Assembly: GCA_028712375.1 (NCBI GenBank)
Contig: JAQTQG010000003.1
Location: forward strand, 14,619 to 78,618
Source: Candidatus Omnitrophota bacterium
GTDB lineage: Bacteria > Omnitrophota > Gorgyraeia > Gygaellales > Profunditerraquicolaceae
DNA: 64,000 nt
Direction of reading: 5' to 3'
Shown here: positions 1,510 through 22,298 of the stretch, one piece after another
Position numbering within the stretch: position 1 is the stretch's first letter
Layout of the letters: each line of letters begins with the position of its first letter
Notes under the pieces: model-generated
The model's database searches: none
Seen by the model: only the letters and a program-made list of their open reading frames with translations
What the model was told of the DNA's origin: nothing
Translations under genes and position numbers: made by a program

Positions 1510-1736
1510 ATGATCGCTAAGACTTATAGTTTTGGCCTGCTGGGCCTGGAGGCTTACCCGGTAGAGATTGAAATTGATGTAGCAAGCGGACTGCCGGCGA
1601 TTAACCTGGTAGGGCTGGCCGATACCGCAATTAAAGAAAGTAAAGAGAGAGTGCGCTCGGCCATTAAAAATTCAGGGTTCCAATGGCCTGCCCAAAGAAT
1701 AACGGTAAACCTGGCCCCTTCCGATATCAAGAAAGA
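1510..1736 (+). pseudogene. comM: comM/yifB 5' fragment (aa 1-75), truncated by insertion
   Basis: Translation MIAKTYSFGLLGLEAYPVEIEIDVASGLPAINLVGLADTAIKESKERVRSAIKNSGFQWPAQRITVNLAPSDIKK matches the ComM/YifB N-terminal (Lon-protease-like) domain. After codon 75 the frame runs into unrelated sequence. The continuation is at 20963. Confidence 0.75.
1723..1736. repeat. left junction direct repeat GATATCAAGAAAGA (attL core candidate)
   Basis: A 14-bp sequence repeated with one mismatch at 20963-20976. It lies exactly at the comM break point. Confidence 0.6.
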
Positions 1737-1774: not shown

Positions 1775-3262
1775 CTAAAAGTTATACTCAATCTCTATCT
1801 TTCCCCCTATAAATACCCTGATAACCTTAATTAAGTCGTTAATCAAATCTCTTTTTTCCTGATCATTAGCCTCAGCCCAGGTAGACTTAAACTCCTTATA
1901 GAATCTACTTTGGCTCTTAAAATCATCCTTTTTTGTTTGTTCTCGCTCAAGTTTAATTCTAGCCTCTAAGATAGAGCATCCTATGCTATCTATTTCTTGT
2001 TTTATCCTCTCCAGCCTACTTAGGACGTCCTCATCATCCGATTTTTCAAGGGCGTTAAGTATCCTTTCTTTTGCCCTTTTTTTACCCTGAAGAGAATCTT
2101 CCTTATTTTTTATCTCTCCTCTAAGTCGGGTAATTTCTATCTGGGAATTTATTTTAAGATGTTTGAATAAATAAGATTCATCTGAAGATAATCCTTCCAC
2201 GTGTTTGAAAATCTCTTCCAGCACCTTATTTTCTAGAAAATCTTTACGATAATTTTTTCTATGCCTACACTTTCCGGGGTTCGTTCTTCTAAGAGAACAG
2301 GCATAATAATACAGATTTCCCCCGATCTTCTTCTGGCTCTTAGTTTGCTTCTGAACTAATTGGTGTCCACACTCACCGCACTGGGCAACATCCCTGATAA
2401 AGAATCCGGGAGCAATAAGTCCAACCTGAGCATGATTCTGGAAGTTCTGTTTTAAAATCTCCTGGGCCTTGGTAAAAACATCTTCACTAATTATCTCTGG
2501 ATGTTTTTTCTCATAGGTTTTTCCCTTTACCATCATCCTGCCTGTATATTTAACATTCTTTAGTATCCGTCTAATCTGCGTGTCTCTTATCAAAAAAGGT
2601 AAAGCGATCTTCTGATTTATCAATTCTTTTACTACTCGCTTATTACTCTTAAACCTGTTATACAGCTCGAAAATTAATCTTACTTTCTCGGCTTCTTCTT
2701 CAACTATAACAAAATGCTTGTTCTCTGATCTATAACCAAATGGAGGATACCCGCCGAAGTTTGTCCCATCCCGAGCAACCTTAATATATCTAGCAGTTAG
2801 GTTACGTTCTCTTATAGTATTTAATTCCATCTCGGCAAAGATCGCAGTTATCTGCATTACAAGTTTCCCCATATCACTAGAGGTATCAAAGGGCTGAGTA
2901 GCTGAAATGAAGACAACTTTGTTCTGCTCAAACTCTTTAAACAAGGTTAGCGTATCAAGAGCAGACCTTGAAATTCTATCAAGACGCCAAACCAATAGGG
3001 CTTTAACCTGGCCTTTGGCGATATCAGCCCTCAGCCTTTGTAATTCAGGCCTTTCGGTGTCGCTACCGCTTAGTTTATCAATATAGAAATCGGAATCTGT
3101 AAGAGGAAGATACCCGTGCAGCTTAGCGCTGTTTAAAATACCTTCCTTCTGCATATCAAGCCCAACCCTATTTACTTCGGCCTGCTCAAGCGTTGAAACT
3201 CGGAGATACGCTTTCGGTTTTATCTGTTCTGTGTTCATTAGTTTTATTTTGCCTTCTTTCAA
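1775..3262 (-). CDS. large serine recombinase (resolvase/invertase N-domain + recombinase domain + zinc ribbon)
   Basis: 495 aa. N-terminus AYLRVSTLEQ...GLDMQ is resolvase-type with the catalytic Ser. Central recombinase domain, a CGECGH...YYYACS zinc-ribbon and a C-terminal coiled coil. Stop codon lies 38 bp from the junction repeat. Confidence 0.85.
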   Translation of the reverse strand: MKEGKIKLMNTEQIKPKAYLRVSTLEQAEVNRVGLDMQKEGILNSAKLHGYLPLTDSDFYIDKLSGSDTERPELQRLRADIAKGQVKALLVWRLDRISRSALDTLTLFKEFEQNKVVFISATQPFDTSSDMGKLVMQITAIFAEMELNTIRERNLTARYIKVARDGTNFGGYPPFGYRSENKHFVIVEEEAEKVRLIFELYNRFKSNKRVVKELINQKIALPFLIRDTQIRRILKNVKYTGRMMVKGKTYEKKHPEIISEDVFTKAQEILKQNFQNHAQVGLIAPGFFIRDVAQCGECGHQLVQKQTKSQKKIGGNLYYYACSLRRTNPGKCRHRKNYRKDFLENKVLEEIFKHVEGLSSDESYLFKHLKINSQIEITRLRGEIKNKEDSLQGKKRAKERILNALEKSDDEDVLSRLERIKQEIDSIGCSILEARIKLEREQTKKDDFKSQSRFYKEFKSTWAEANDQEKRDLINDLIKVIRVFIGGKIEIEYNF

Positions 3263-4392: not shown

Positions 4393-4764
4393 TTATCTTC
4401 CAGTTATAGAATTAATTATAGTCATAGGATGGACAAACCACAGAATAAGAAGTATTGTGAAAATTGTCCCCATAATTACGCCAAACATAGCCCTACCCAT
4501 TCCGTGTTTTTCAGGGTTTCTCTTAATGTCCCTTATCGCGAGAATACCAAATAGCAAAGCAAACGGAGCTGGAATAAAAAGAATGGAAAAGAAAGCTAAA
4601 TAGCCCGCTGTAATAGCATATCCTGATCTTCCCACTGGCAATAAAGCACGAACAAGGGCATCCTGTCCTGGATCCTTGTTTATTTTTGCTCCTGTAGGAA
4701 CTCCGCACTTCATACAAACAACAGCATCGTCTTTAATTTCTCCACCGCATTTTCTACAAAACAT
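4393..4764 (-). CDS. zinc-ribbon membrane protein (paralog of the preceding gene, DUF4190-like)
   Basis: Same MFC+KCG...C.KCG ribbon start as 4062-4370, followed by three predicted TM helices. Confidence 0.5.
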
Positions 4765-5279: not shown

Positions 5280-5531
5280 GTGTTCAAAGAGAGGATTTTA
5301 TTGGAAAATGTTAATATGGAAAACATCAATATCAGGTTCGGTAAACATTTGAGGGAATTAAGGAAGGAACGGGAACTGACACAAGAAGAGCTTGCTGAGA
5401 TTTCGGGGCTTGACTATAAATATATCCAACGTCTGGAAGGTAAAAAGCCTTCTTCTCCTACCCTAAATTCATTAGAAAAGATTGCTAAAGCCTTTAATAT
5501 AAGACTCTCAAAATTACTTAAATTTAATTAA
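5280..5531 (+). CDS. XRE-family HTH transcriptional regulator
   Basis: 83 aa. LRELRKERELTQEELAEISGLDYKYIQRLEGKKPSSPTLNSLEKIAKAF is a canonical Cro/C1-type HTH. Divergent from the upstream cargo genes. Confidence 0.7.
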   Translation: MFKERILLENVNMENINIRFGKHLRELRKERELTQEELAEISGLDYKYIQRLEGKKPSSPTLNSLEKIAKAFNIRLSKLLKFN

Positions 5532-6193
5532 TACCAACCATCAAGAATACACATTAGAATGCTTAATTCGTTAAGAACGGCCCGAAACTTCTTGTCCTTC
5601 TTGTAGTGCTTGTTATAAGATTCTTCACCTTGGACAACAAGATATTTCTTCTTTTTTGAATCCCAATCGAATTTAATCCTTGTGCCTTCGGCCTTAGTCG
5701 TAACAGTACGGAGTACTCCATCCTTCTTCATTCTCTTAGCATATTCTTCCTCTGGAATGCCGTCTTTACGAGCATGCTTGCCAATAAACTTCTCATGGAT
5801 CTCACGCACATAATCAATCCACTCTTGCTCTTCACTAGGCGGCTTATAACCTTCTGGCAGAATATCACTCATCTTCTTTGCATTACTCACATAACGAGAA
5901 TAAGCCGTAACATCACCAGTGCCGATCCAACGGTCAATGTCACTCTTGCGGAATATGGCTCTACCATCAGCTATACGTGAGAACGGCATCTTTTCCTGAC
6001 GCACCCAACCATCTATAGTCGTTTGTGGCACGCAAAGATATTCTGCTACTTGGACCTTACTTAAATGAATCCTTTTTGTTTTTTTGAATGTTTCGGATTC
6101 TTGGAGGGATTTTTGATCTAAAAACTCACCACAATGACGACACTTAATAGCTTCTTCTTGGATTTCTTCAGCACAAAATGGACATTTCTTCAT
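5528..6193 (-). CDS. zinc-ribbon + excisionase/Xis-type HTH (HTH_17-like) domain protein
   Basis: Starts MKKCPFCAEEI...CRHCGEF. The segment LSKVQVAEYLCVPQTTIDGWVRQEKMPFSRIADGRAIFRKSDIDRWI matches the MerR/Xis excisionase DNA-binding domain. C-terminal half unknown. Confidence 0.5.
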   Translation of the reverse strand: MKKCPFCAEEIQEEAIKCRHCGEFLDQKSLQESETFKKTKRIHLSKVQVAEYLCVPQTTIDGWVRQEKMPFSRIADGRAIFRKSDIDRWIGTGDVTAYSRYVSNAKKMSDILPEGYKPPSEEQEWIDYVREIHEKFIGKHARKDGIPEEEYAKRMKKDGVLRTVTTKAEGTRIKFDWDSKKKKYLVVQGEESYNKHYKKDKKFRAVLNELSILMCILDGWY

Positions 6194-6198
6194 ATCAA

Positions 6199-7509
6199 TT
6201 ATTTAGCTAAAGTAAGGCTTTTGAGTGAGTTGGCAAAAAATTCACCAATTATAGATTCTTCATAAGAGATGCTCTCACCTTTAGGTAAGATATAGAGATT
6301 CTTGATTTCATTCATAAGAGAACGGTAATTCTGAACATCAATTGAACTAGAATTAAGATTATCTCTATAGGGGTTAAGTGTTTTCATTTTTTCATTAAGA
6401 TCTTCAATTTTAGAGAAAATTTTATTAATTCTGTTAAAAATTACCTGGTTGGTATAAAACACTTCAAGCTTAATCAACTCTGGCCACATAGCATGCTTAT
6501 TTGCAGTATTAAAATCTTTATAATTCAATAATACCCAATGCGAATCTGCGTATAAATAATTATTTACCCCTATAAAAAGTAGCTGATAGTATTCTTTTAA
6601 ATCCCCATCAAGAGCAGCTAGATAATTACGGGTCACCTTTGCCTCGGGATCTGAATTTATCTTCTTTAAAACAATATCGCCTTTTCGACTCAACTCCTCT
6701 TCTTCGGATTTAATGAATTTTCTAACCTTTTCCTTAGAAATTTCAGTTACATTATCCAATAGCCATTTTGCTACTGTGAGCTTAAAATTTCTTAAACCAC
6801 CATATGAAAGATGCTCTAGGCCATCAATATCAGTAAATTTTTCTACTTCAGGCCGTAGTAAAAGACAAACTTTTATTCCTAATCCATGCATTAAACCATA
6901 CTCATAACTAACACTGTTACTTGCAGAAGATATATCTACAATTCCATATTTACAGGTTTTTATTAATTTGCAAACTTTACAAAGAACAGCTTCAGAGGTT
7001 AATTTATCCTTGGCTATGATTGGAATTAAACCAAACTTAGTTAATATTTCTTTTAAAGCTGATTCGCAATCCTCATATTTTTGATAAGGTATATCTAAAA
7101 AAACGTTATTCTCGTTAAATTCCTGTGTAATTTCATTATTCAAATCACAAGCATCCTTTGCTAAAGGCCCACAGGCATTAATAAAGACTTTTTCCGAATC
7201 CACACTTTTTTGTTTAGGCTTTGTAGCATTCTCCTTGCCACTTTCTTTTTCCAATTTTAACTCTTCTATTGCCATCTGAACTTGACTTTTCATTATGTTG
7301 AATGCTGGTTTCAAAGTATAAGAAGAAAGTGGTAAATTAATTTTGTGGGCATTTTGTATAAAATTATAGTAATATTGTTCATTAAATTTCAACAATGGTG
7401 CAACTTTGTTCGACCAATCAATACATGCTTGCTGAGAAGGAAATCCCTTTTCGACTTCCTCTATATTATAAAGATCTTGTAATTTTTTTAAAATTCCACC
7501 GAAATCCAT
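6199..7509 (-). CDS. hypothetical protein (436 aa), first/last gene of nuclease operon
   Basis: No recognisable catalytic motif. The C-terminal region ...CKYGIVDISSASNSVSYEYGLMHGLGIKVCLLL... suggests a Rossmann-like strand-loop-helix. Tightly linked to the downstream nuclease genes. Confidence 0.4.
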   Translation of the reverse strand: MDFGGILKKLQDLYNIEEVEKGFPSQQACIDWSNKVAPLLKFNEQYYYNFIQNAHKINLPLSSYTLKPAFNIMKSQVQMAIEELKLEKESGKENATKPKQKSVDSEKVFINACGPLAKDACDLNNEITQEFNENNVFLDIPYQKYEDCESALKEILTKFGLIPIIAKDKLTSEAVLCKVCKLIKTCKYGIVDISSASNSVSYEYGLMHGLGIKVCLLLRPEVEKFTDIDGLEHLSYGGLRNFKLTVAKWLLDNVTEISKEKVRKFIKSEEEELSRKGDIVLKKINSDPEAKVTRNYLAALDGDLKEYYQLLFIGVNNYLYADSHWVLLNYKDFNTANKHAMWPELIKLEVFYTNQVIFNRINKIFSKIEDLNEKMKTLNPYRDNLNSSSIDVQNYRSLMNEIKNLYILPKGESISYEESIIGEFFANSLKSLTLAK

Positions 7510-7558: not shown

Positions 7559-8317
7559 TTACCCTACTTTAACTTCTTTCAGTATTTTCTGGTAAATACA
7601 GAAATCACAATCAGCACTATATTCAGGAACTACGGGACCCACCAAGCATTTATACATCTCAATAATCTTAGCCTCAATCCAAGAATCATTTCCGTCATAA
7701 GGTATTATTTTGATATCGAAATCAAGCTTTGCACTAAAGGTATCCCTGTCAGTAAGCCCATTGCAATACACAAAATAACCGGTTGGAGATACATTAAAAC
7801 CGTTTTTTCTGAATAACCACTGGTATATTTCCATCTGCCTCTTATAAGATATCTGCCAATCAGCATCTATGCTTACTTCTTCTTCCTTTGATGTGCTCTT
7901 GTAATCTACGATAAATAGCTGGCCATCCGATGAGGCCCAAACGTCATCTATCCCCCCTGTAAGTAAAAGATTTGTCGGTATGTGCAGATATTCAATACCA
8001 CCATGAAGAGCATCCCGCCAGATATTCAGCTTATCGTGCTTAAAAGGAACCGCCTTGATCCCATTTGCTTCCATAAGAGGATGGCTTATCTGTTTATTCC
8101 GATAGACATCGAATTCTTTCTTCAGTAACTTGTCTACTGCTGAATTTAGTGTAAAAGGGAACCCGGGTGGTTGCCCTACGCCTAATCTTCTGTCTAAATA
8201 GAAGCAACGTGGGCAATTTATGAATAGTTCAATTTTGGAGCGGCTTAGTTTAAATGGAATTTTACTATGCGGATCGAATAAATTCTTAGTTTTTCTACCA
8301 GTATAGTATTTAGACAT
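7559..8317 (-). CDS. Cas4/RecB-like PD-(D/E)xK nuclease with Fe-S cysteines
   Basis: 252 aa. Motifs GGIDDVW...LFIVDYKST (D...D/ExK) and QMEIYQW (QxxxY). An N-terminal CPRC and a C-terminal C...CDFC fit the 4-Cys cluster arrangement of Cas4/AddB-type nucleases. Confidence 0.6.
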   Translation of the reverse strand: MSKYYTGRKTKNLFDPHSKIPFKLSRSKIELFINCPRCFYLDRRLGVGQPPGFPFTLNSAVDKLLKKEFDVYRNKQISHPLMEANGIKAVPFKHDKLNIWRDALHGGIEYLHIPTNLLLTGGIDDVWASSDGQLFIVDYKSTSKEEEVSIDADWQISYKRQMEIYQWLFRKNGFNVSPTGYFVYCNGLTDRDTFSAKLDFDIKIIPYDGNDSWIEAKIIEMYKCLVGPVVPEYSADCDFCIYQKILKEVKVG

Positions 8318-8461
8318 AGACCTACAGACTATTATTCCCGATTCTTCTTTGGCTATCTGCCGCCGTAGAACTTAAACTAGGCTTGGATTTAGGTTATCTA
8401 TCCATCAGCTTAAAAGCTTCCCGCTTTCAACAATGCTGATGTAGTGAAAAAACTATAAATC

Positions 8462-10351
8462 TTAAGAAATAGTTACAACCGCTTCTGCTTCTGACCAAGT
8501 GTTTATCAAATCCAATATTTTTTGAATTTGAATCGGATAATCTTCTAATGAAAGATCTTCATATTTCATAAAAGCAGCTCCGATCTTGCCATGTTTTTCT
8601 ACTTGATTTGTAGCTATGCCTATAATGTTTTCAAGTTCTGGTGTAATTTTGATGATCTTCCCAATATTTTTATCCAAAGAACCATCAATAAAATCGTTTT
8701 CTTTAAACATTCTGAGCTCAGATTCTTCTTTGTCTGTTTTATTAGGTTTATTTTCTGGAAAGTTAATAGGGTCTATATCATGGATAGCAACGTAAGGAAC
8801 TTTGAACTTATTAAGTACTCGCATAAATATATGTATATTGGTTTTTCCGCCACATTCAACTACGCATATGTTTTTAGCAACGAAGTCATATTTTTTATCT
8901 TTTACAGTAAATTTTGTTGCCCAGAAAGGAACTATAAATTTTTCGGTATCACCTTCAACCAATACTACTTTCTTAGAGAAAAACATTTCACTACGCGATA
9001 AGTCAAAAAGGCTTAAATAACGGAAAACTTTTTTTAACCTATTGTTTTCCTGTGTGGTTTCAGCAGCAAATATATCTCCAACAAATTGAAAGGTATTTGT
9101 TGGACCTTTTTCCTCACGCCCAACGATCACGATATTCTTGTATTCAAACATATCTACAAAAAAGTTAGAATGTGTACAGGCCAATATTTGATCAGTAGTT
9201 GCGATATTCCTTAAAACTTCAATCATCTTTCTTTGGCCATTAGGATGTAAATATAGTTCTGGTTCCTCAATTGCAAGTATAAAATTTTTCACCAAGGCTT
9301 CCGGTTGATCTTCTTCTACAATTACAGTACTTACTGTTTTAGCATAAGCTCTTATATAAGCTAAAATTAGTGCACGTTGAAGACCATGTCCCTTAGAATC
9401 AATCGAAGTAGGCAAAGCGTCATCTAAAGTAATATTCACATCTTTAAATAAATCAACAAGTTCGGGAGTGACGATTTCAATACCAACCTTTGTTCCTGGC
9501 ATACTTTCGCTTATTATGCCTGTAATAGTGCTTTCGAAATCTTTTATTTCCTGTAATCGGTCTGAGTCATCTCCAGTACCTGATTTATTTAAATATTTCT
9601 TCAACCCTTCGAGCTGGTTCTTAACCTCTTCAAATTTTGGATTCTTTAAAACTATCCTATTTGTTAAATCGGTTACTAACTTCCCTAATACAGTTTGCTG
9701 TGTAGTCTTAGATTCATCACATGCATCTTTTACAGCAGGAACCAAATAAAATTTAGGCAACAAATCAGCAAATACTTCTTTGAGGCCTGCAGGATTCTTT
9801 ATCCAATCTGGATCACCAAATTCCACTTTTCCGTCCTCTATACACTTCATAACCCCTTCTTTATATGAAGCCTGGGTCACGGTTCCCTTATCAGTTTTAA
9901 AATAGTCTGGTAAATTTTTATCTTTCACAATTTTTGCAATATCCCCTTTATATTCATCAAATCTTGATAGATCAAAATGGAGCTCGCGAGGCTTAGCTTG
10001 CCATCCATAAAACGTCGTTTCATATTTTTCACTCTGATTATTATACTCTACGACCTTTTTCACTCGAATTGCATGGTCATAGATCCAATGCTTAAGATAC
10101 TTTTGTTTTTCATCATACTCAGTTAATCTATCAAATGTCAAAATAATAGTGATTGGTTCATTATTCTTTTTGAAATAAAAATATTCCTCGTTTATCCCCT
10201 TAACCGAATCTTGATAGAATAATTCTATTGCTCGAAGTATATTGGATTTACCTGCATTATTCTCTCCAATAAACATAGCCAATGAATCTATTTCAATTTC
10301 TATGCTGTCTATGGACTTAAATTTGTGTATTTCGACTTTACGTAACTTCAT
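8462..10351 (-). CDS. OLD-family ATP-dependent endonuclease (ABC ATPase + TOPRIM)
   Basis: 629 aa. N-terminus MKLRKVEIHKFKSIDS...FIGENNAGKSNILRAIELF is the OLD/AAA_15 Walker A. The C-terminus VVLVEGDTEKFIVPF...VVECGGKTN...VAIHDID is a TOPRIM domain with E, DxD-like and G motifs. Confidence 0.8.
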   Translation of the reverse strand: MKLRKVEIHKFKSIDSIEIEIDSLAMFIGENNAGKSNILRAIELFYQDSVKGINEEYFYFKKNNEPITIILTFDRLTEYDEKQKYLKHWIYDHAIRVKKVVEYNNQSEKYETTFYGWQAKPRELHFDLSRFDEYKGDIAKIVKDKNLPDYFKTDKGTVTQASYKEGVMKCIEDGKVEFGDPDWIKNPAGLKEVFADLLPKFYLVPAVKDACDESKTTQQTVLGKLVTDLTNRIVLKNPKFEEVKNQLEGLKKYLNKSGTGDDSDRLQEIKDFESTITGIISESMPGTKVGIEIVTPELVDLFKDVNITLDDALPTSIDSKGHGLQRALILAYIRAYAKTVSTVIVEEDQPEALVKNFILAIEEPELYLHPNGQRKMIEVLRNIATTDQILACTHSNFFVDMFEYKNIVIVGREEKGPTNTFQFVGDIFAAETTQENNRLKKVFRYLSLFDLSRSEMFFSKKVVLVEGDTEKFIVPFWATKFTVKDKKYDFVAKNICVVECGGKTNIHIFMRVLNKFKVPYVAIHDIDPINFPENKPNKTDKEESELRMFKENDFIDGSLDKNIGKIIKITPELENIIGIATNQVEKHGKIGAAFMKYEDLSLEDYPIQIQKILDLINTWSEAEAVVTIS

Positions 10352-13139: not shown

Positions 13140-13988
13140 ATGAAGTTTGCCGATGTAAATAAGACCATAATAAAGCTGTGCAAAGATAACAGTTTGGATT
13201 TCTTAGCTGAATGCGAAGCTATCCAATCTGAAGTTGATGCCTGCTCTCTACCTGAAATTCTCGACCATTTAGATAATGCAGGTATCATACCCGAATGTTT
13301 TGATCACGATTCTACGGAAGAAAAGTTGTTCGCAAAGTATTGTGACTCTTTATTAGCTCGTGGGTTACGAGAAATAGGATTAAACGCATATACAATACCA
13401 GAACGCAGTGATGCGGCTGATGTTCAAGGGAAGGGTAGCAATTACACTATTGTTGGAGATGCTAAAGCGTTTCGTCTTAGCAGAACAGCAAAAAACCAAA
13501 AAGATTTTAAGGTCGAGGCTCTTGATAAATGGAGAAATGGATCCGATTTCGCTGTATTAGTAAGCCCTCTTTACCAGTACCCAAATACAAATAGCCAGAT
13601 TTACTCACAAGCAATAAGGTATAATGTTACCCTATTATCTTATACCCACCTAGCTTTCCTAATAAGAAATAGAAATAATATAAAGAATGGCTCTCTTAGG
13701 GGATTATGGGAAATCGGAAAAAAGCTCTCTATTGGTAAAAGCGCCAAATCATACTGGGGATTAATTGACGCTAAAATGCTAGAAATTACCGGGAAGGATA
13801 AAAAGGATTGGGATAGCGCTATAGAAACAGAATACAAATGCTTAGTTCAGAGAGCTAAGGACGAGATTAAGTATTGGGAAGATGAAAAAGCAAAGATATT
13901 AAAATTGTCTCACGATGCGGCAATACAAGAACTAATTAAGGCTAGGAAAATAACAGAAAAGGTCGGAGTTATTAAGCAGTTTATATAG
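13140..13988 (+). CDS. putative Type II restriction endonuclease (PD-(D/E)xK candidate)
   Basis: 282 aa, convergent with and 8 bp from the methyltransferase gene. ...FDHD...ERSDAADVQ...YTIVGDAKAF is compatible with a D...(D/E)xK active site. Inference only. Confidence 0.4.
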   Translation: MKFADVNKTIIKLCKDNSLDFLAECEAIQSEVDACSLPEILDHLDNAGIIPECFDHDSTEEKLFAKYCDSLLARGLREIGLNAYTIPERSDAADVQGKGSNYTIVGDAKAFRLSRTAKNQKDFKVEALDKWRNGSDFAVLVSPLYQYPNTNSQIYSQAIRYNVTLLSYTHLAFLIRNRNNIKNGSLRGLWEIGKKLSIGKSAKSYWGLIDAKMLEITGKDKKDWDSAIETEYKCLVQRAKDEIKYWEDEKAKILKLSHDAAIQELIKARKITEKVGVIKQFI

Positions 13989-13995
13989 CGTTGAT

Positions 13996-16200
13996 TTAAA
14001 GAGATTTTCTTTTTGTGATTTTGAAGCCTGAATAGAGTGTTGAGATGTAGTCTGAAATACTCATAATCATATCTGCATCACATCCACCCCCAGTGATGTT
14101 CTTATAGTTGACCAGTAACCCAATTCCCTGTGCGAATATTGCCAACCCAATGTCTTTCTCGCTCCATCCCGCTTCTTTCAACACATTACCATAATCAGAT
14201 ACGTAAGAAGATACCTTAGCAATTATTTCGGGGAAAGATATTGATGATTTCTCTTCCATTGTTTTATGACAGACGAAGGTAATGCAAGTATCTATTGCTT
14301 CTGATGTCATGCCGCGAGGTCTTGCTTTTCTTTCTATACTAAGTGGTTGCACGCTTGTGATTATAAAATTAGTGTCTCTAAACGCCCGAATAATTGCGTC
14401 CCATCCGCCTAGTGAGCTATGGCTATAAATAAACGATAGGACGCCGTCATATTTCAAAACTCTCTCAGCTTCTTTTATCGCCTTGCCTAATTCTAAGCAA
14501 TACTTATCGTGAGCTTCAAGGGCCGATTGACTACGAAATGCTGAAGCAACTAATTCGGAACCAAAGCTAGTGTCTTGTTTGTTAAATAAATCCGGATCAA
14601 CATTTTTTAATAAAATTCTTTTCCACGCATAAAAGAAATCCGCTAATATGCTGTAATAAATATTATCATAGTATGGGGGATCTGTTATAATTGCATCAAA
14701 ATAATTGCTCTTAAATGGGAGGTTTTGGGCAATTCCACAGTTTACTTCCGGTTTATATGGAAATTTTTCGATGGAGCTAATGCCTGAAATGATACGGTCG
14801 AGCTTATCCCAAAGATTAGCTGGGCCATTCATTATGGGGTCTATTTCGCCATAATCCCAAAGCATGGGAACGCCTGGACCGCAAAAAGCTCGCCCCATCT
14901 GTTCATTTTGCGAAATCCACATAGATAAACGACAATTCCAATCCACAAGTTGATCAATTAAACTCGCCAATACAGAAATAGCAAAATCCGCCAACTCCTT
15001 TGAATTCTGCTCCTTCAATAACCGATATTCATCTTTCAGACACTTTATCAAAGACAGTAGAACCACCCTCTGCCTTTTATTGACAAAATCACTATGAGTT
15101 TCTATGCCGTAAACTGAGGGGTTCACAATGCCGGACCATTTGGGCAATTTCGTATTTGGAAGACTGCTTTCTAAAGATTTTAATAAATCATTTTCAAGAT
15201 GAGAGATCTTAACGGCTGAGGGAATCAGCAAATCGTTGTTTTCTATAAGCAAAAACTCTTTCCCGGATTTTTCTTTCCGCTTAACAAAAGCAATTAGCTC
15301 ATCTCGAGTGTTGCTAATATCAACTTTTTCAACTATATGAGAGCATTTTGGGCATTTAGCAGACCCATTTCGACCTTCCCAATTTGAGTTATGTTCATAT
15401 TTGTCATCCACTTCCTTAATCCCAATATGCTGTCGATCCTTGGAATTATTTATAATAATTGCTATTCGCTTATTTTTCTTGCGTGACAGCCAGGGTCTTT
15501 TTATTAAATAATATACATATTTACATTTTGGGCATTTTAATGAATACGTCCAGAAATACACTACAGGTGGTCTTTGTTTCGTCTCGGATATCTCACCCTG
15601 CTTACTTCTTGATACCCCTCCCTTCCTCAATGGAAACAATTCATTTGTTGCTTCTTCTAAAGACTTTAAAACACGAATGCCAGATTTCCTTACAATATCT
15701 TCGGCACTTCTTAAATCAACTTTCTGCGAGTATTCAAGATTTGCTTTTTGTATAAAAACAGACAATTCATTCGCATCAATAGAGTATGCTTTGGCACCTA
15801 TGTTGGCTATTTCTAATGGTATTGTTCCTCCACCACCAAACATATCTAGGGCCTTTGGAGGAACTACGTATTGTTCTTTAATAATAGCTCGGGCTTTATC
15901 TATGGCACTTTTGTTTGCATCCCCCGCTAACTCAACCATTATTTCATACATTTTAGGTGTACTTATTTTACATAGAGAAGCAAACGCAAGTATCCTCATA
16001 GCAGAATGAGGTCTTCGAGCCCACCAAACGTGGAGTGTATGCGACGTTTCTCCACTTCGGTATCGTTCCGCAAGACCAGCTATTGAGGCTTCGTAATGTA
16101 AAAGTCCACTATCTATCAAACGATGTTCCGAAGTGTTTGGGATCAGAGCAATTTCAGGACTTGATTGGGTTTTATTTTGACACATACTACTTATTGGCAT
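13996..16200 (-). CDS. DNA methyltransferase, N6-adenine/N4-cytosine type, alpha-class with DUF1156-like N-terminus and internal zinc ribbons
   Basis: 734 aa. N-terminal LHVWWARRP motif (DUF1156-like). Motif I DMFGGGGT. Internal CPKCKY...CPKCSH ribbons (putative TRD). Motif IV ITDPPYYDN. The order I-TRD-IV indicates alpha class. Confidence 0.75.
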   Translation of the reverse strand: MPISSMCQNKTQSSPEIALIPNTSEHRLIDSGLLHYEASIAGLAERYRSGETSHTLHVWWARRPHSAMRILAFASLCKISTPKMYEIMVELAGDANKSAIDKARAIIKEQYVVPPKALDMFGGGGTIPLEIANIGAKAYSIDANELSVFIQKANLEYSQKVDLRSAEDIVRKSGIRVLKSLEEATNELFPLRKGGVSRSKQGEISETKQRPPVVYFWTYSLKCPKCKYVYYLIKRPWLSRKKNKRIAIIINNSKDRQHIGIKEVDDKYEHNSNWEGRNGSAKCPKCSHIVEKVDISNTRDELIAFVKRKEKSGKEFLLIENNDLLIPSAVKISHLENDLLKSLESSLPNTKLPKWSGIVNPSVYGIETHSDFVNKRQRVVLLSLIKCLKDEYRLLKEQNSKELADFAISVLASLIDQLVDWNCRLSMWISQNEQMGRAFCGPGVPMLWDYGEIDPIMNGPANLWDKLDRIISGISSIEKFPYKPEVNCGIAQNLPFKSNYFDAIITDPPYYDNIYYSILADFFYAWKRILLKNVDPDLFNKQDTSFGSELVASAFRSQSALEAHDKYCLELGKAIKEAERVLKYDGVLSFIYSHSSLGGWDAIIRAFRDTNFIITSVQPLSIERKARPRGMTSEAIDTCITFVCHKTMEEKSSISFPEIIAKVSSYVSDYGNVLKEAGWSEKDIGLAIFAQGIGLLVNYKNITGGGCDADMIMSISDYISTLYSGFKITKRKSL

Positions 16201-16519: not shown

Positions 16520-17134
16520 TTAAACACTAAGTAGCTCGGCACACTCCGCCAGATCTTCCTTCGTTACGCCCGTGTAGATCTGCGTCGTAGAAACGAACTT
16601 GTGTCCCAAAAACTCCTGCACCTTCCGGATGTTGCCACACTTTCGCATTAACTCCGTCCCAACCGTGTGCCTCAGACAGTGTGGTGAATATCTTCCTTCC
16701 AAGCCACTTTCACTAACCCATTTATTAAGGTTTAACTGCACTGCCCTCTGGGTAATTCTTTTGTTGTTCCTTGATAAAAATAAGGGTTCGCTCAAGGAGA
16801 AGCCTTCATCCTTTGCCTTTCTCTGCCTAATGTATTTATCTATGTGGGCTCTAATATCCTTGTTTAATGGTATTTGCCTAATCCTGTCGCCCTTGCCTTT
16901 TATCTCCAACACTTCCTTTGACGAATAGCCGTTGTGCACATCCTTGGCATTAAGGTTGATCGTTTCACTAAGGCGTAATCCAGTATTAAGCATAAGGTCA
17001 AACATACAATAATCACGCCAGGCTTTCCTGCTGTCGGCAAGTGTCTTTAAGAATTGTTTCTTTTGTTCAGAAGTCAGATATCTTATCGTGTTCCTCTTGG
17101 CCATTTCACACCTCTTCGTTAATATACTGCTCAA
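16520..17134 (-). CDS. tyrosine site-specific recombinase, catalytic domain only (XerD-like)
   Basis: 204 aa. GLRLSE (Arg I), HCLRHT (H-x-x-R), LGH and TQIYTGV (Tyr nucleophile). Lacks an N-terminal core-binding domain. Confidence 0.8.
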   Translation of the reverse strand: MSSILTKRCEMAKRNTIRYLTSEQKKQFLKTLADSRKAWRDYCMFDLMLNTGLRLSETINLNAKDVHNGYSSKEVLEIKGKGDRIRQIPLNKDIRAHIDKYIRQRKAKDEGFSLSEPLFLSRNNKRITQRAVQLNLNKWVSESGLEGRYSPHCLRHTVGTELMRKCGNIRKVQEFLGHKFVSTTQIYTGVTKEDLAECAELLSV

Positions 17135-17540
17135 CCTTAACCCTTACCTTTTCTTTTAATACCTGAAACTCTTCTGAGAACTCGCCATTATCACTAAAAT
17201 CTCTGTCTTTCCATAAATTGTCATACGCCTGGCAGAGAAAATATTGGTATTCTTTATTTTGCGGGGACATCTCAATAGCCTTAAGGATAATTTCAGTGCC
17301 TGTCCTTAAAGAAGTAACCCAGAAAGTTGTAAGCAGAATATATGATTGTTCGTAAAGAAGCTCTGCTCTCTGTTCTTTTGAGAGGCCGTAATTCTGCAAT
17401 AATTTATAGACCCTATCAAGCCTCTCAGATTTTTGTGTATCTCCATCAGGTTCTTGAGCAAAGAGATTAACTAAAAATAATAACGACATCGAAACTATTA
17501 AAATAACTATTATCTGTTTTGTATTCATTTTCACCTCCAA
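17106..17540 (-). CDS. secreted/membrane hypothetical protein
   Basis: 144 aa with N-terminal signal peptide-like MNTKQIIVILIVSMSLLFLVNLFAQEP. Confidence 0.35.
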   Translation of the reverse strand: MEVKMNTKQIIVILIVSMSLLFLVNLFAQEPDGDTQKSERLDRVYKLLQNYGLSKEQRAELLYEQSYILLTTFWVTSLRTGTEIILKAIEMSPQNKEYQYFLCQAYDNLWKDRDFSDNGEFSEEFQVLKEKVRVKVEQYINEEV

Positions 17541-17576
17541 TATCTTTTTTCCTATATATGGCCTGACCCTGGCTTC

Positions 17577-19037
17577 CTATGAATTAGCAAAAAAACCTAT
17601 CTTGGTTTTATTGTCCTTAACAAAGATTCCGTCCTGTTCTAGACTCGCTCCAAACAAAAGGTCATTCATTGTAATAATATTCCTTTTCTCTTGAACCAGC
17701 CGTCGCAGGGCGTGGAAGACAGCATTCTTGATGTAGCCACCACTAAACTGAAATTGTCTGGCCAGAACAGCAAAATCAACACCTTGGGCAAGAGTTACCT
17801 TGCTTGGAATATGCGATCGCCAAATTTCTTTGCGTATCTTCTCATCAGGCAAATCAAATTTAACCTTTAAAGTAACTCTGCGTTCAAGTGCAGGATCAAG
17901 CAAATTATCCATGTTCGAAGTTAAGATTACCACTCCTTCAAACCGTTCAATTTCCTGTAGCATAATATTAACAAACCTAATATCGTGTTCTTGGGCTGCG
18001 AAGTTGCGGTTATATAAAATAGAATCCGCCTCGTCAATACAGATAACAACATTATTTTGCTTTGCTGACTTAAAAATAGAAGATATTTGTTTATCGGTTT
18101 CACCAAACCAACGTGAATTTATTTTGGGAAATTCAACAACAAGCAACTTCTTCTTAAGATGTTTTGCTATTGCCTCAGATAACATCGATTTTCCCGTGCC
18201 GGGCGGACCGTAAAAGAGGAAAACCAATCCTTTGCCATTTTTAATTGTTTCTTCTACACCAAGATCTTCAAGTCCTTTATCCTGCAACCCGGATAATAAG
18301 AAACTGACGTTTTTCTTCACATCGAGAGATAGCTTAACATCTTCAAGAGAATATGCCGGATCCTTTAAAAAACCAACCTCTTCGCAAGGGTGTAAATCTT
18401 TTTTATTTTCTGCCCTTCCAGGTCTAGATTCTTTATACTCCCCACTTATCATCCTAGAAAAAACGTCCAACAAAGACGAACTCATCCCGAAACTGACTAC
18501 GGCCGAGTTGTGGTTGTTTCGATAATATGGGTACAAAATAGAATATTTTAAAAGATTGGCATTTCGGTTAAAATAACGAGACAACCCCATTCTCCCGATT
18601 ACAGAATCATTTAAGTCAAAGATCCTAAGGAGCAGATCCCTTGAACAGATATTCTCTTTTAGGTGCAAGAACTCCAAATAAAGGTAATATAGGAGTATTT
18701 GCTTTTCAAAGATATCCAAACCGTATAGCGAGGCAGTTTTTTCTAACGCAAACTTACTGCCCTTAGACATGGAATCCTGTACCCTTTGCCAAAACAAAAC
18801 TTCTTTTGTCTTTATTGTTGAGTCCAATTCTGATACATTCTTGCGGAATGCCTCTACATCATCCTTAGATTTCTTAATAAGAATAATTCTTTTGTTTTGG
18901 TAAAGTTCGCAGATCTTGAAATATTCTTCGATGTATTCTTGGTCACCTGAAAGAAAATTATTTTCCGGCATTACCTTTTCTCCTTTCTTTCTGCACAAAC
19001 TTATCAAAATCCTCAACTGTCTTTTTGAGCCTTTCAT
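17577..19037 (-). CDS. classic-clade AAA ATPase with unknown ~260-aa N-terminal domain
   Basis: Walker A GPPGTGKSML, Walker B VVICIDEADSI and second region of homology ILTSNMDNLLDPALERRV (CDC48/FtsH-like AAA). The true start may be the internal Met at ~18971. Confidence 0.8.
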   Translation of the reverse strand: MKGSKRQLRILISLCRKKGEKVMPENNFLSGDQEYIEEYFKICELYQNKRIILIKKSKDDVEAFRKNVSELDSTIKTKEVLFWQRVQDSMSKGSKFALEKTASLYGLDIFEKQILLYYLYLEFLHLKENICSRDLLLRIFDLNDSVIGRMGLSRYFNRNANLLKYSILYPYYRNNHNSAVVSFGMSSSLLDVFSRMISGEYKESRPGRAENKKDLHPCEEVGFLKDPAYSLEDVKLSLDVKKNVSFLLSGLQDKGLEDLGVEETIKNGKGLVFLFYGPPGTGKSMLSEAIAKHLKKKLLVVEFPKINSRWFGETDKQISSIFKSAKQNNVVICIDEADSILYNRNFAAQEHDIRFVNIMLQEIERFEGVVILTSNMDNLLDPALERRVTLKVKFDLPDEKIRKEIWRSHIPSKVTLAQGVDFAVLARQFQFSGGYIKNAVFHALRRLVQEKRNIITMNDLLFGASLEQDGIFVKDNKTKIGFFANS

Positions 19038-19632
19038 TCATCTGATCATTCATTAACTTTGTTAAGGCTATCGCTTTTTCATATTTCTTGCCATACCAAA
19101 TAAGTTTCTTCGTAGGTTTACCTTTGTAACACCACCGCTTAAAACTCGCCGCTTGCTTTATCAGTTCAGGCACATTGATTACGCCAAATTTCTTATAAAT
19201 ACCGCTTAATCTAGAACTCTCATAAGCAAGATCAAAACAGTTTCGACATCCAAAATAATTGCCGACCCTGTAAAGTACCCCTACCCGCCTATCACAGCCT
19301 AAGATTGACAAAGGACACTTAAACCAATATCTGACACCGCCGTAATTACAAGAAGTTGCGACTAAATCGACCCTGTATTCGAAATTCTGATATTCTCCAT
19401 TAGGCTGAAGAATAGAGTAATAGAAATCTAAGAATGGATCATTCTTGTTTATAAACGATACTACAATATGGATACCGTTTTTAAAGACTTCCCCATTATA
19501 AGGAATATCAATAATCCCAAAATCACTGGCTTCTAAAAAATCATTAAGTTTTAGTGATAATATTGGAATCTTGTAAAGGTTATCTGCCACCAACTTGGGG
19601 CTTTTATCTCTGTCCATTGTAAAACACCTCAA
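18958..19632 (-). CDS. Cys-rich hypothetical protein (putative zinc-binding), partner of the AAA ATPase
   Basis: 224 aa. SCNYGGVRYWFKCP...GCDRR...YFGCRNCFDLAY suggests a Cys4 zinc-ribbon-like cluster. Overlaps the AAA gene 5' end. Confidence 0.4.
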   Translation of the reverse strand: MRCFTMDRDKSPKLVADNLYKIPILSLKLNDFLEASDFGIIDIPYNGEVFKNGIHIVVSFINKNDPFLDFYYSILQPNGEYQNFEYRVDLVATSCNYGGVRYWFKCPLSILGCDRRVGVLYRVGNYFGCRNCFDLAYESSRLSGIYKKFGVINVPELIKQAASFKRWCYKGKPTKKLIWYGKKYEKAIALTKLMNDQMNERLKKTVEDFDKFVQKERRKGNAGK

Positions 19633-19738: not shown

Positions 19739-20098
19739 TTACCATTCAATAATAATCTTCTTATCTAACATCTGCACTTTTCCGATAGCCTCCATTTTGA
19801 TTAGGCGTTTTCCCTTGTTTTCTGACACCTGGTTGAGTGATCTATCTTTTGACATAGCAAAACACCTTTTTGACTCATTCCCCTCGGAAAATCGTGTTGA
19901 GTTGGTCAAAACGCCTTCCAGAATTGACCTGACATATACTCTGCTAGGACCAATTCCTTTTCTAGCAGGATTGTGCCCCATTCTGAATGGGAACAAATAA
20001 CAACCCGTCGTGTTATCACAGAAGCGAACATCTTTAGGCCTACCTGCACAAATAAGACAGTGTTTTCGGATGGCTTGTAACGGCGTAAGGTGTTTCAT
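19739..20098 (-). CDS. small hypothetical protein (119 aa) with CLIC...C...C motif
   Basis: ORF only. Weak. Confidence 0.25.
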   Translation of the reverse strand: MKHLTPLQAIRKHCLICAGRPKDVRFCDNTTGCYLFPFRMGHNPARKGIGPSRVYVRSILEGVLTNSTRFSEGNESKRCFAMSKDRSLNQVSENKGKRLIKMEAIGKVQMLDKKIIIEW

Positions 20099-20293: not shown

Positions 20294-20385
20294 CCCCCTA
20301 CTTAGGGGGTAGCGAATAACCTATATAGGAGACAGTAAATAACCCACTTAGGGGGTAGCAATAACCCATATAGGGGTAGCAAATA
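20294..20385. repeat. iteron-like direct repeats with embedded 7-bp palindrome
   Basis: The unit ACTTAGGGGGTAGC(G)AATAACC(T/C)ATATAGG occurs at ~20299-20329 and ~20346-20375, with a third partial TAGGGGTAGCAAATAG at ~20371-20385. The first copy begins with CCCCCTA-CT-TAGGGGG, a perfect inverted repeat. Confidence 0.5.
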
Positions 20386-20402: not shown

Positions 20403-20831
20403 TTAACTTGGCTTCACCCATATCATCCTGCCCTCTATGTACGGGTAATCTTTGCCGTTCTTCACTTCAGATCCCTCCTTAATATCTATACGAATCTTCC
20501 AGCTTTTCCGCTTGCCTTTGGTTACTGTTATCACCCACTTTCCAGCGTCCTGCTCAATCCCAATTTTTCTTCCATCCCGGGTTATCATTTTTTTCTCCAA
20601 TAGCTTTTTCTTTGTTCTAGGTACGTGAGATAATGGTATACCAGTGCTATTTTCGATTTGGCTGTTGGAAATCCAGTCCAAATCCTTTTGGTACCCTAAG
20701 GTCTTCATAACAATAAACCACCACAAGGCGTGCTCGTACGGACTAAGGTAACGAGCAATCCAAACATAACCCATTCTCAACAAACGCCAAGGCAGTTTTA
20801 TGAAACGTACATTATCTTTTAGATCTGCCAT
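20403..20831 (-). CDS. putative replication initiator / replisome-organizer-like winged-helix protein
   Basis: 142 aa. N-terminal FIKLPWRLL... and a GIPLSHVPRTKKKLLEKKMI winged-helix-like segment resemble phage/plasmid RepA_N / replisome-organizer N domains. Directly adjacent to the iterons. Confidence 0.4.
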   Translation of the reverse strand: MADLKDNVRFIKLPWRLLRMGYVWIARYLSPYEHALWWFIVMKTLGYQKDLDWISNSQIENSTGIPLSHVPRTKKKLLEKKMITRDGRKIGIEQDAGKWVITVTKGKRKSWKIRIDIKEGSEVKNGKDYPYIEGRMIWVKPS

Positions 20832-20954: not shown

Positions 20955-22298
20955 ATGCACTCTGATATCAAAAAAGAGGGCGCTTGTTTTGATTTAGCCA
21001 TTGCCCTGGGCATTCTGGCGGCAACCGGGCAGATCGGCAAAGAGCGCCTTCAAAACTACTCTTTTCTGGGAGAATTATCCCTAGACGGCCAATTGCGGCC
21101 GGTGCATGGCGTTCTGGCGATAAGTTTAACTATCTCTAAATTCCCGGTTAAGAGCCTTGTTCTTCCCGAAAAGAACGCTCAGGAAGCAGCGGTTATACAA
21201 GAAATTTCTGCCTGGCCGCTCAAAAACTTAAAAGAAGTGGTGCAATTTTTAGCTGATCCCGGAAGCCGAAGCCCATTTAAATTAGATATTAACCACGTTT
21301 TTAAAGGCGGTGGGAATTATACTTTGGATTTCTCCGAAGTTAAAGGCCAATATTTTGCAAAAAGAGCGCTGGAAGTGGCGGTATCCGGGGGGCACAATAT
21401 TATTATGCTCGGTCCGCCCGGCAGCGGGAAAACTATGTTAGCTAAAAGGATTCCCACTATTATGCCTAACCTTTCCTTAGAAGAAGCTCTGGAAATCACC
21501 AAAATCCATTCCGTAGCCGGGACGCTATTAAATGATAATTTTATCAGAACCCGGCCCTTTCGCTGCCCGCATCACAGTATTTCAGATACCGCCTTAATCG
21601 GAGGAGGCAGCGTGCCTAAACCCGGAGAGATCAGCCTGTCTCATTACGGCGTGCTCTTTCTGGATGAACTCCCGGAATTTAACCGCAAGGCCCTGGAAGC
21701 ATTAAGACAGCCGCTGGAAGACAACCTGATTTGTATCAGCCGCGTAAAAAGAACCCTGGTATTCCCGGCTTGTTTTATTTTAGCCGCCGCGCTTAACCCT
21801 TGTCCGTGCGGCAATTATTTTAACCCGCACAAACCATGCCATTGCAACCCGACAAAAATCAAAAATTACCTGGGGAAAATTTCCGGGCCGCTGCTGGATA
21901 GAATCGACCTGCACATTGAAGTCCCGCAGGTAAAACACCGGGAATTATCAGACGCGCGGGAAGCAGAATCATCGGCAGCCATCCGGCAACGCGTAGAAAA
22001 CGCCCGCGCAATTCAACAAAAAAGATTCTCCGCCATAGGCAAATCCGGCTCCACAAGCATATTTTGTAACGCCCAAATGACCAATAGGCTCATTAAAGAA
22101 TATTGTGTTTTAGATGCCGAGGCTAGTAACTTATTAAATATGGCAATAACCGAATTGGCCCTATCGGCAAGGGCTTATGATAAAATACTTAAGGTGAGCC
22201 GGACGATTAGTGACCTGGCAGGCAGCCAAAACATTAAATCCGAACATGTTGCCGAGGCAATTCAATACCGCTCTTTAGACCGGCAGCTCTCCGGATAA
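20955..22298 (+). CDS. comM: comM/yifB 3' portion (Mg-chelatase-like AAA+ ATPase, aa ~71-end)
   Basis: SDIKKEGACFDLAIALGILAA continues the N-fragment exactly. Walker A GPPGSGKTMLAKR, Walker B LFLDELPEF, and a C-terminal Mg-chelatase ChlI-like domain. The ATG at 20955 is fortuitous and created by the insertion. Confidence 0.8.
   Translation: MHSDIKKEGACFDLAIALGILAATGQIGKERLQNYSFLGELSLDGQLRPVHGVLAISLTISKFPVKSLVLPEKNAQEAAVIQEISAWPLKNLKEVVQFLADPGSRSPFKLDINHVFKGGGNYTLDFSEVKGQYFAKRALEVAVSGGHNIIMLGPPGSGKTMLAKRIPTIMPNLSLEEALEITKIHSVAGTLLNDNFIRTRPFRCPHHSISDTALIGGGSVPKPGEISLSHYGVLFLDELPEFNRKALEALRQPLEDNLICISRVKRTLVFPACFILAAALNPCPCGNYFNPHKPCHCNPTKIKNYLGKISGPLLDRIDLHIEVPQVKHRELSDAREAESSAAIRQRVENARAIQQKRFSAIGKSGSTSIFCNAQMTNRLIKEYCVLDAEASNLLNMAITELALSARAYDKILKVSRTISDLAGSQNIKSEHVAEAIQYRSLDRQLSG
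20963..20976. repeat. right junction direct repeat GATATCAAAAAAGA (attR core candidate)
   Basis: Matches 1723-1736 at 13 of 14 positions. Lies at the point where the comM reading frame resumes. Confidence 0.6.

Follow-up and report, generated by a model that had tools for sequence, protein, structure and literature searches.

Do two overlapping genes on a mobile element, one encoding an AAA ATPase and the other a cysteine-rich (Cys-rich) protein, form a dedicated two-gene system? The question is raised by positions 17106–19632 of a 64,000-nucleotide stretch of DNA from a Candidatus Omnitrophota bacterium (assembly GCA_028712375.1, contig JAQTQG010000003.1, positions 14,619 to 78,618), which is referred to here as the window. 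A first-pass annotation of this DNA had framed the locus as a discrete ATPase/Cys-rich system with a unique N-domain, and this framing was borne out in part. Our preferred explanation, to which we give a probability of roughly 0.55, is that the locus represents the distal end of the replication/backbone operon of a ~19.2-kb island inserted into comM by a large serine recombinase (LSR), together with an optional AAA unfoldase, and that it holds no dedicated two-gene system.

The locus and the island that carries it

The 17106–19632 interval was filled by three open reading frames (ORFs) on the minus strand: an ORF of 144 amino acids (aa; 140 aa in the gene model given below), the AAA ATPase and the Cys-rich ORF. 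The likely start of the ATPase was the ATG at 18971, with the ribosome binding site aaggag, which gave a protein of 464 aa that was the same as NCBI protein P0121. The likely start of the Cys-rich protein was the ATG at 19617, giving 219 aa (18958–19617, minus strand). With these starts the two ORFs overlapped by 14 nucleotides (nt), the longest ORFs giving 80 nt; the overlap described by the first-pass annotation was therefore real, but its length and that of the upstream protein had to be corrected to 14 nt and 219 aa. An identical NCBI protein was found for each of the two in a Ca. Omnitrophica metagenome-assembled genome (MAG), along with many homologues, and both ORFs were therefore taken to be real genes. 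The motifs that had been quoted for them (GPPGTGKS, ICIDEADS, DPALERR, CNYGGVRYWFKCP, GCDRRVGVLY and GCRNC) were all found in the translations. The features of the interval were as follows.

18958..19617, minus strand: Cys-rich protein of 219 aa, modelled with an N-terminal beta domain, a C4 zinc ribbon, a basic YKGKPTKK loop and a long C-terminal helix
19237..19317, minus strand: codons of C101, C108, C124 and C127 of the predicted zinc ribbon, which are invariant columns in 120 sequences
18264..18971, minus strand: N-terminal region of the ATPase, residues 1-236, modelled as a helical hairpin, a winged-helix domain and a linker
17577..18263, minus strand: AAA module of the ATPase, assigned to the classic clade, and C-terminal IGF tail, residues ~237-464
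17106..17528, minus strand: 140-aa orphan ORF (NCBI hypothetical protein PHS66_01570) with a signal-peptide-like N-terminal segment, predicted to be secreted

Library scans gave no family match for the 140-aa ORF (17106–17528) and no homologue of it was present in any fetched locus.

Analysis of the flanking DNA revealed that comM was split, with the following features at the two ends of the intervening DNA.

1510..1736, plus strand: comM 5′ fragment (Mg-chelatase/YifB-type), first ~75 codons, whose translation ends ...NLAPSDIKKD and is in frame with the fragment at 20955
1720..1736, plus strand: left attachment (att) core TCCGATATCAAGAAAGA, 15/17 identical to 20961-20977
1775..3262, minus strand: 495-aa LSR at the island's left end (Resolvase 6.5e-32, Recombinase 1.5e-14, Zn_ribbon_recom 1.2e-8)
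19739..20098, minus strand: small Cys protein of 119 aa (CxxC...C...C; MKHLTPLQAIRKHCLICAGRP...), missing from the NCBI annotation and held only by a Logan record
20297..20385, no strand: iteron-like array of 3-4 copies of GCTACCCC(C)TAnnTGGGTTATT at a spacing of 22-23 bp, directly 3′ of the RepO-like gene
20403..20831, minus strand: RepO-N-terminal-domain protein of 142 aa (Phage_rep_O 1.5e-14; replication initiation O-like PHROGs; 'replication protein' at NCBI)
20955..22298, plus strand: comM 3′ fragment (ChlI profile positions 52-121 only, Mg_chelatase 1.5e-92, Mg_chelatase_C 4e-33)
20961..20977, plus strand: right att core TCTGATATCAAAAAAGA, the counterpart of the left core

A 17-nt core, TCyGATATCAArAAAGA, was present at both junctions and the SDIKK of comM was encoded by either copy. 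The island of ~19.2 kb had a GC content of 0.33-0.39 as opposed to about 0.43 outside. It showed what is expected of an LSR-type integrative island, namely a three-domain recombinase at one end and an interrupted target with a short common core. As comM was split, the core was found at both junctions and the LSR was located at the left end, comM is the integration target of an Omnitrophota element, which confirmed that the locus lies on a mobile element as had been proposed. The iteron-like array at 20297–20385 is likely to be the replication origin of the island, although this assignment is putative. Homologues of the 119-aa protein (32-63% identity) were found directly upstream of the Cys-rich gene in two related loci (L140 and L141) and directly upstream of the ATPase gene in a third (L006); Pfam contained no family that matched it. 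The contents of the island and the order of its genes therefore place the Cys-rich and ATPase genes at the tail of the island replication/backbone operon.

A very large family of Cys-rich proteins

Members of the Cys-rich family shared the motif RYWFxCP...G..CGRRVGVLY..GDYFGCRHCYxLTYxS...YxGKPTKK. An exhaustive profile search of clusters made at 50% identity revealed 11,024 cluster representatives at E<=1e-3, of which 5,717 were at E<=1e-10. The structural model of the window protein had a predicted local distance difference test score (pLDDT) of 92.8, a C-terminal helix of 48 residues and strands at residues 95-100, 114-118 and 121-123. The four invariant cysteines fell in two knuckles flanked by beta-strands in this model, which points to a C4 zinc ribbon.

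No match to the protein was found in Pfam, NCBIfam, PHROGs or the PDB sequences, and its only PADLOC match, to ZorC (E 0.009), was at chance level; this agreed with the first-pass annotation, which had recognised no motif in it. When 120 family members were scanned against Pfam at E<=1, the matches were scattered and at chance level only. Foldseek comparison of the model with the PDB and BFVD returned nothing at E<=0.001. The family of the Cys-rich protein is very large and undescribed, and the modelled fold has no significant counterpart in these two databases.

The family was also sought in viral sequences. A tblastn search of phage records gave no match and a scan of viral contigs with the single protein found none; when the family alignment was used as the query, 2 matches were obtained from the viral contigs compared to 191 in the genome scan.

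Several candidate identities were rejected. DUF1955 matched 16 members (best E 0.0025) over the same spurious region as PDB 1wy6. Short fold matches to Pur-alpha and YunM (54-59 columns, E about 0.1-0.2) were judged insufficient, and a transposase or insertion sequence was ruled out by the presence of one copy per locus and by the fixed synteny. Some close relatives (P0002, P0003 and P0005; L141 3875-4999) had a C-terminal extension of ~150 aa. The extension was tested as a fused DUF6876 domain and proved not to be one, nor did any known family match it.

Gene order around the Cys-rich family

Gene order was read in 80 distant Cys-rich loci, which were taken from one-genome-per-species contigs (Candidate Phyla Radiation (CPR)/Patescibacteria, Planctomycetota, Omnitrophota and some gammaproteobacterial MAGs) and had highly stereotyped neighbours. 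Together with 6 close-clade Cys-rich contexts and about 10 contexts of the ATPase family, these make up the contexts read, set against a family of ~11,000 representatives.

The nearest large ORFs upstream of the Cys-rich gene (n=60) included many primases or helicases: Toprim_2 14, Prim-Pol 4, AAA_25 3, DnaD_N 3, DUF5906 2 and D5_N 1, counted per family such that one protein may carry several. The close-clade genes likewise sat after primases. The gene that immediately preceded the Cys-rich gene encoded, in 38 of 74 loci, a protein of 176 aa, or a 306-aa form of it in Planctomycetota (for example L001 5421-5951 for the 176-aa form and L069 8942-9862), with the N-terminal motif EKQLEANRQNA..G.KT.EGK..KYNALKHGL. 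No Pfam family matched this protein, which is a second anonymous backbone gene of the elements that carry the Cys-rich gene.

The same position was seen on plasmids. On a 4.8-kb Psychrobacter plasmid, which had no recombinase, the Cys-rich relative followed and overlapped a YagK/G2P-type Rep gene; a Phaeobacter plasmid carried its relative after a weak G2P-like Rep gene, and on a Legionella plasmid it came right after AlpA and a RepB-primase. The Cys-rich gene is thus immediately 3′ of the initiator whatever the type of the latter, be it a Toprim primase, Prim-Pol/D5, RepB-primase, G2P/YagK-type Rep or RepO-like protein.

On the other side, an LSR gene was found directly downstream, on the same strand, in 42 of the 68 loci with enough sequence. 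The median gap between the Cys-rich and LSR genes was about 146 nt, and the two are therefore not translationally coupled. Loci that had no downstream LSR often had restriction-modification cargo there instead, and many Planctomycetota loci lacked an LSR. In compact elements the Cys-rich gene is immediately 5′ of the recombinase. Given this gene order and the near-absence of the family from viral contigs, the Cys-rich gene belongs to the backbone of replicative integrative elements and plasmids that are not viral.

This organisation resembles that of P4-like and other primase-encoding integrative elements, in which a regulator is followed by a primase or initiator, small accessory genes and the integrase, and the Legionella relative, lying right after AlpA and the RepB-primase, fits that order. 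The resemblance is limited in two respects, as a Cys-rich accessory gene is not described as a component of any such element and the initiator of the comM island is a 142-aa RepO-N-domain protein with adjacent iterons.

Co-occurrence of the Cys-rich and ATPase genes

No member of the ATPase family was found within 10 kb of the Cys-rich gene in any of the 80 distant loci. Among the nearest relatives of the Cys-rich protein (the close clade, 41-62% identity), the ATPase gene followed the Cys-rich gene, directly or one gene on, in four of six contexts: the window, L004, L140 and L141. The order in this clade was a primase or Rep gene, the small Zn protein, the Cys-rich gene, an optional DUF6876 gene and the ATPase gene, the DUF6876 gene being located between the other two in L004 and L140. 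L140 also encoded a tyrosine integrase and a RepB-primase/DnaB_C protein, and L141 a Prim-Pol/D5 protein. The ATPases of L140 and L141 were cut by the contig end; the remaining fragments matched the family profile at 2.5e-37 and 4.3e-17. The two close-clade contexts without an ATPase were the contig of P0008 and L143, where DUF6876 and then a resolvase followed. Pairwise identity among the four positive elements was 44-69% for the Cys-rich proteins and 44-73% for the ATPase N-domains.

ATPase genes without a Cys-rich gene were found in six contexts (L006, L088, L125, L127, L129 and L134). The L006 ATPase (67% identical) was located after a homologue of the small Zn protein and before a small resolvase, and the other five, which were 43-53% identical, lay in mosaic neighbourhoods with WYL regulators, metallo-beta-lactamase-fold proteins, PAD_porph, DUF6745, TPR proteins and Bub-like genes.

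This pattern (4/6, 0/80 and six ATPase-only contexts) indicates that the adjacency is real and moderately old, yet facultative and limited to one lineage. Each gene is far commoner without the other, and the co-occurrence across both families that would mark an obligate two-gene system was not observed. The pairing put forward by the first-pass annotation accordingly holds for four of the six informative close-clade elements and fails both in the distant Cys-rich loci and among ATPase relatives at <=67% identity. Members of the ATPase family, a large family in its own right, are optional additions here in one lineage of elements and occur elsewhere without the Cys-rich gene.

The AAA ATPase

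The ATPase matched Pfam AAA (PF00004) with 94 bits (cut-off 21.2; 1.3e-26) over residues 274-395 of the 486-aa ORF, and NCBIfam gave partial matches to CDC48, PAN, CdvC and FtsH. Its best PDB sequence matches were Cdc48, VAT and p97, with Rix7, AFG2 and Rpt also found. In an alignment of 58 sequences, Walker A (G255-K261), E314, the sensor-1 residue N353, R364/R365 and the pore-loop G290 (RWFG) were invariant and D313 of Walker B was nearly so. Profile, motifs and closest solved relatives all identify a classic-clade AAA protein, and the earlier assignment to the CDC48/FtsH type was upheld.

The AAA module was closest to the D1/D2 modules of Cdc48/p97/VAT (1.8e-39 and below), with which it shared Walker A/B, an aromatic pore loop, a second region of homology with two arginines and GGYIKN in place of the sensor-2 arginine. 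It differed from these proteins in that it had a single AAA module, a helical hairpin and winged helix as opposed to a double-psi barrel, and a distinct [IMVL]GF C-terminal tail, and in being encoded by a mobile element.

The N-domain had been described as unique. The best 120 matches listed for the ATPase were mostly full length (about 460-500 aa), 39-74% identical and mostly from Omnitrophota, and conservation ran from the first helix through to the last residue, so that the domain is conserved family-wide and is not unique. In an AlphaFold2 model of residues 1-200 (pLDDT 92.5), a long helical hairpin led into a bundle of helices that bore a beta-hairpin wing. The top 15 Foldseek matches of this model were all winged helix-turn-helix regulators of the MarR/HxlR/PadR type (probability 0.57-0.99, TM-score normalised to target about 0.5, E about 0.1). 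PF22977 ('winged helix domain, variant') scored 24.7 bits in the window ATPase against a cut-off of 27 and was a precomputed match in many full-length homologues. The N-domain is accordingly predicted to have a winged-helix fold. The ATPase probably belongs to an existing, functionally uncharacterised Pfam architecture, PF22977 + PF00004, with which it shared full-length homology at 39-74% identity. No function is described for this architecture and the term PF22977 was absent from the literature searched; no literature was found on PF22977, DUF6745, DUF6876 or Pvc15 plus winged helix.

A GF dipeptide was found within the last 30 residues of 108 of 109 full-length members (17577-17600 region in the window). 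It was 2-4 residues from the C-terminus in 95 members and was preceded by I, M, V or L in 84. AAA+ unfoldases dock on peptidases via short hydrophobic motifs such as the ClpX IGF loop and HbYX tails, and the [IMVL]GF tail is possibly a docking motif of this kind.

The best PADLOC and NCBIfam match of the ATPase was IetA of the IetAS anti-phage system (6.2e-35 and 3.8e-31), over the AAA module only. This match reached 108.6 bits compared to an equivalog cut-off of 510 and covered profile positions 89-323 of 367, leaving the N-domain uncovered, and no match to IetS (an S8 subtilase) or another peptidase was found among the window ORFs neighbouring the ATPase. A partial match to TRIP13 (8.3e-16) was again confined to the AAA module; PADLOC found no HORMA/CD-NTase model, as would be expected for TRIP13/Pch2 of the CBASS anti-phage systems, in the eight ORFs from the methyltransferase to the RepO-like gene or in eight cargo ORFs. 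The ATPase is not IetA, a TRIP13-type regulator or a housekeeping protease subunit.

A metagenome scan for the ATPase family was swamped by the generic Walker-A pattern and found one full-length member; the viral scan returned distant AAA proteins only. No universally conserved neighbour of the family was present among the contexts read, which showed just mosaic pairwise sharing. An idea that the ATPase belongs to an extracellular contractile injection system was dropped, as contractile-injection genes were in no context. In Omnitrophota and Planctomycetota (L125-L130 and L134), the ATPase neighbourhoods carried subsets of a WYL regulator, a ~438-aa metallo-beta-lactamase-fold protein, PAD_porph and DUF6745, as well as TPR proteins, a PQ-loop protein and many small ORFs, and one had a Bub-like operon (Multi_ubiq, ThiF, BubE).

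Other genes of the island

The remaining genes of the island lay between the LSR and the ATPase locus.

3398-3913, minus strand: MerR-type protein adjoining the LSR, an alternative candidate for the directionality or regulatory factor of the island
4062-4764, minus strand: two adjacent paralogous small proteins, both starting MFC(Q/R)KCG.EI..(E/D)AV(I/V)C.KCG, which is zinc-ribbon-like, and both terminating in hydrophobic, membrane-like segments
5528-6193, minus strand: 221-aa Zn-ribbon + HTH_17 (excisionase-like) protein, a further alternative candidate for the directionality or regulatory factor
6199-7509: 436-aa ORF with a weak PDC-S35 match
7559-10351, minus strand: OLD-family nuclease (PADLOC Old 2.8e-88; AAA_15 + OLD-like TOPRIM) and adjoining PD-(D/E)XK (Cas4-like) protein
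13140-16200: HindIII-type restriction endonuclease (PF09518 1.3e-84) and 734-aa DUF1156-type methyltransferase (PADLOC MTase_II 4e-197)
16520..17134, minus strand: short tyrosine recombinase of 204 aa (Phage_integrase 6.9e-39; XerC positions 105-284 of 295; DNA-invertase models of about 200 aa)

The OLD-family nuclease and its PD-(D/E)XK neighbour are probably defence cargo, and the HindIII-type endonuclease and DUF1156 methyltransferase constitute an island-borne Type II restriction-modification system. The tyrosine recombinase (16520-17134) consisted of the catalytic domain only, with no N-terminal core-binding domain, and was similar in size to the FimB/FimE invertases. It was considered as an invertase of its own segment; a search for flanking inverted repeats gave AT-rich, chance-level pairs only. 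As no convincing repeats flank it, the recombinase may be a remnant or may act elsewhere.

Alternative explanations

One rival to a backbone-operon tail with an optional ATPase is a dedicated defence, anti-defence or maintenance system in which the Cys-rich protein would be the sensor or adaptor and the ATPase would carry out the effector or remodelling step. We regard this as unlikely. The overlap of the ORFs, the four adjacencies kept in proteins only 44-73% identical, the partial IetA matches of the AAA module and the wealth of defence cargo on the island all speak for it, as do the variable, defence-island-like surroundings of the ATPase relatives (WYL, ImmA/IrrE, Bub-like and ParB-methyltransferase genes). 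Against it stand the 0/80 result, ATPase relatives down to 43% identity without a Cys-rich gene, the DUF6876 gene that separates the pair in L004 and L140, the resolvase that replaces the ATPase in L143, the shortfall of the IetA score (108.6 against 510 bits) with no IetS protease among the neighbouring ORFs, and the behaviour of the Cys-rich gene as a backbone gene beside primases. The specific defence or anti-defence role suggested by the first-pass annotation found no support in these tests, which gave no full PADLOC model match, IetS protease or HORMA partner. The same annotation had held that a housekeeping protease-adaptor pair in core genomes would speak against its proposal. No such pair was found, and a housekeeping or other core cellular function is extremely improbable: the ATPase is of the classic clade like FtsH, PAN and Cdc48, but both genes lie within an island bounded by a split comM, the neighbourhoods of their relatives are mobile or variable, and no protease domain or protease neighbour was found in the Pfam and PADLOC scans.

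A main role of the Cys-rich protein as recombination directionality factor (RDF) or other LSR accessory, with the ATPase as unrelated cargo, seems similarly doubtful. RDFs of large serine integrases are structurally diverse and lack family signatures, and some moonlight as replication proteins (PMC12286644). Like phiC31 gp3 and Bxb1 gp47, the Cys-rich protein is a small to medium accessory protein with no family signature, and the immediate downstream position of the LSR on the same strand (42/68) also speaks for this reading. The family nevertheless also occurs where there is no LSR at all: with a tyrosine integrase in L140, on the 4.8-kb plasmid that lacks a recombinase and in many Planctomycetota loci. 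In the window, the Cys-rich gene is 15.7 kb from the LSR and the MerR-type (3398-3913) and HTH_17 + Zn-ribbon (5528-6193) proteins are nearer candidates; the median gap of about 146 nt leaves no translational coupling. A different emphasis falls on the ATPase, which could be an element unfoldase that docks via its [IMVL]GF tail on a host peptidase ring (ClpP- or proteasome-like) and delivers for degradation a target chosen by the N-domain, perhaps a repressor of the element or a defence protein of the host. The pore loop (W288-F289-G290), Walker B and the arginine fingers are intact, the GF tail is near-universal (108/109; 95 close to the end; 84 with a preceding hydrophobic residue) and docking through short hydrophobic motifs is established. 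This scenario is decidedly unlikely, since the tail differs from both an internal IGF loop and a terminal HbYX, no consistently adjacent peptidase gene was seen in the contexts read and the argument is drawn purely from a sequence motif.

Some observations weigh against our own preference for a backbone-operon tail with a facultative ATPase. Adjacency was kept in four elements as diverged as these and the genes overlap by 14 nt, so a real functional link may still exist within the lineage. The close-clade sample was small (6 contexts), with L004 and L140 partly mosaic relatives. The winged-helix assignment came from Foldseek matches at E of only about 0.1 and from a sub-threshold Pfam score in the window ATPase. 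We infer the biochemical roles of both proteins, and the description of the Cys-rich protein as a replication accessory is taken from gene order alone.

Proposed mechanism and significance

Under the backbone-operon explanation, the LSR would have inserted an integrative island of ~19.2 kb into comM. Its minus strand runs from the RepO-like initiator through the iterons, the 119-aa small Zn protein, the 219-aa putative C4 zinc-ribbon protein and the predicted winged-helix domain (WHD)-AAA ATPase to the probably secreted 140-aa ORF, after which the defence cargo and then the recombinase follow. The zinc-ribbon protein may assist the replication or establishment of the element, as an accessory that binds nucleic acid or recruits proteins. 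With its conserved basic loop and long basic helix it would act on something common to elements with very different initiators; candidate targets are DNA, whether of the origin or of the element, and host factors of replication or recombination. Because some RDFs are moonlighting replication proteins and RDFs lack a family signature, it might also influence the direction of recombination.

The ATPase, whose threading machinery is intact, would for that reason be a hexameric, substrate-threading unfoldase. Its winged-helix/coiled-coil N-domain may choose the substrate, either a protein or a nucleoprotein complex, from the element or from the host, and the hydrophobic GF tail may serve to dock the ATPase on a partner ring. 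Plasmid initiators and transpososomes are remodelled by AAA+ chaperones of the cell, and by analogy the ATPase of the close-clade lineage could act in this way on a nucleoprotein complex of the element. Alternatively, it may be merely the first cargo gene of a variable region. In either case the Cys-rich protein and the ATPase would be co-expressed but would not form an obligate two-component system.

A more far-reaching reading, which we consider quite unlikely when all its parts are taken jointly, is that the Cys-rich family would be a zinc-ribbon accessory universal to self-replicating integrative elements and small plasmids. Its fold would be absent from the PDB and BFVD and its hosts would span CPR bacteria, Planctomycetota, Omnitrophota, Proteobacteria and Archaea. 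Initiators of every type would be compatible with it, for instance through recruitment of the replication apparatus of the host or a second role as directionality factor, and one Omnitrophota-associated lineage would have recruited a WHD-AAA unfoldase with an [IMVL]GF tail that remodels or degrades the Cys-rich protein or its partners. If this were true, it would amount to an element-encoded, ATP-driven switch between replication and integration.

The locus is of interest chiefly because the zinc-ribbon family is both large and anonymous and because its gene keeps a fixed position between initiator and integrase. The family has ~11,000 clusters yet is missing from Pfam, NCBIfam and PHROGs, and its confident model has no solved or viral predicted match. 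For the study of unfoldases encoded by mobile elements, the ATPase family and its conserved C-terminal tail offer a tractable candidate. The position of the zinc-ribbon gene between the initiator genes and the integrase makes it a useful marker for widespread small replicative integrative elements, and this is relevant to candidate-phyla bacteria, in which mobile elements are poorly described. Knowledge of what the Cys-rich protein does could reveal a step that such elements share as they become established or, alternatively, a new partner family for the large serine integrases that are used as genome-engineering tools.

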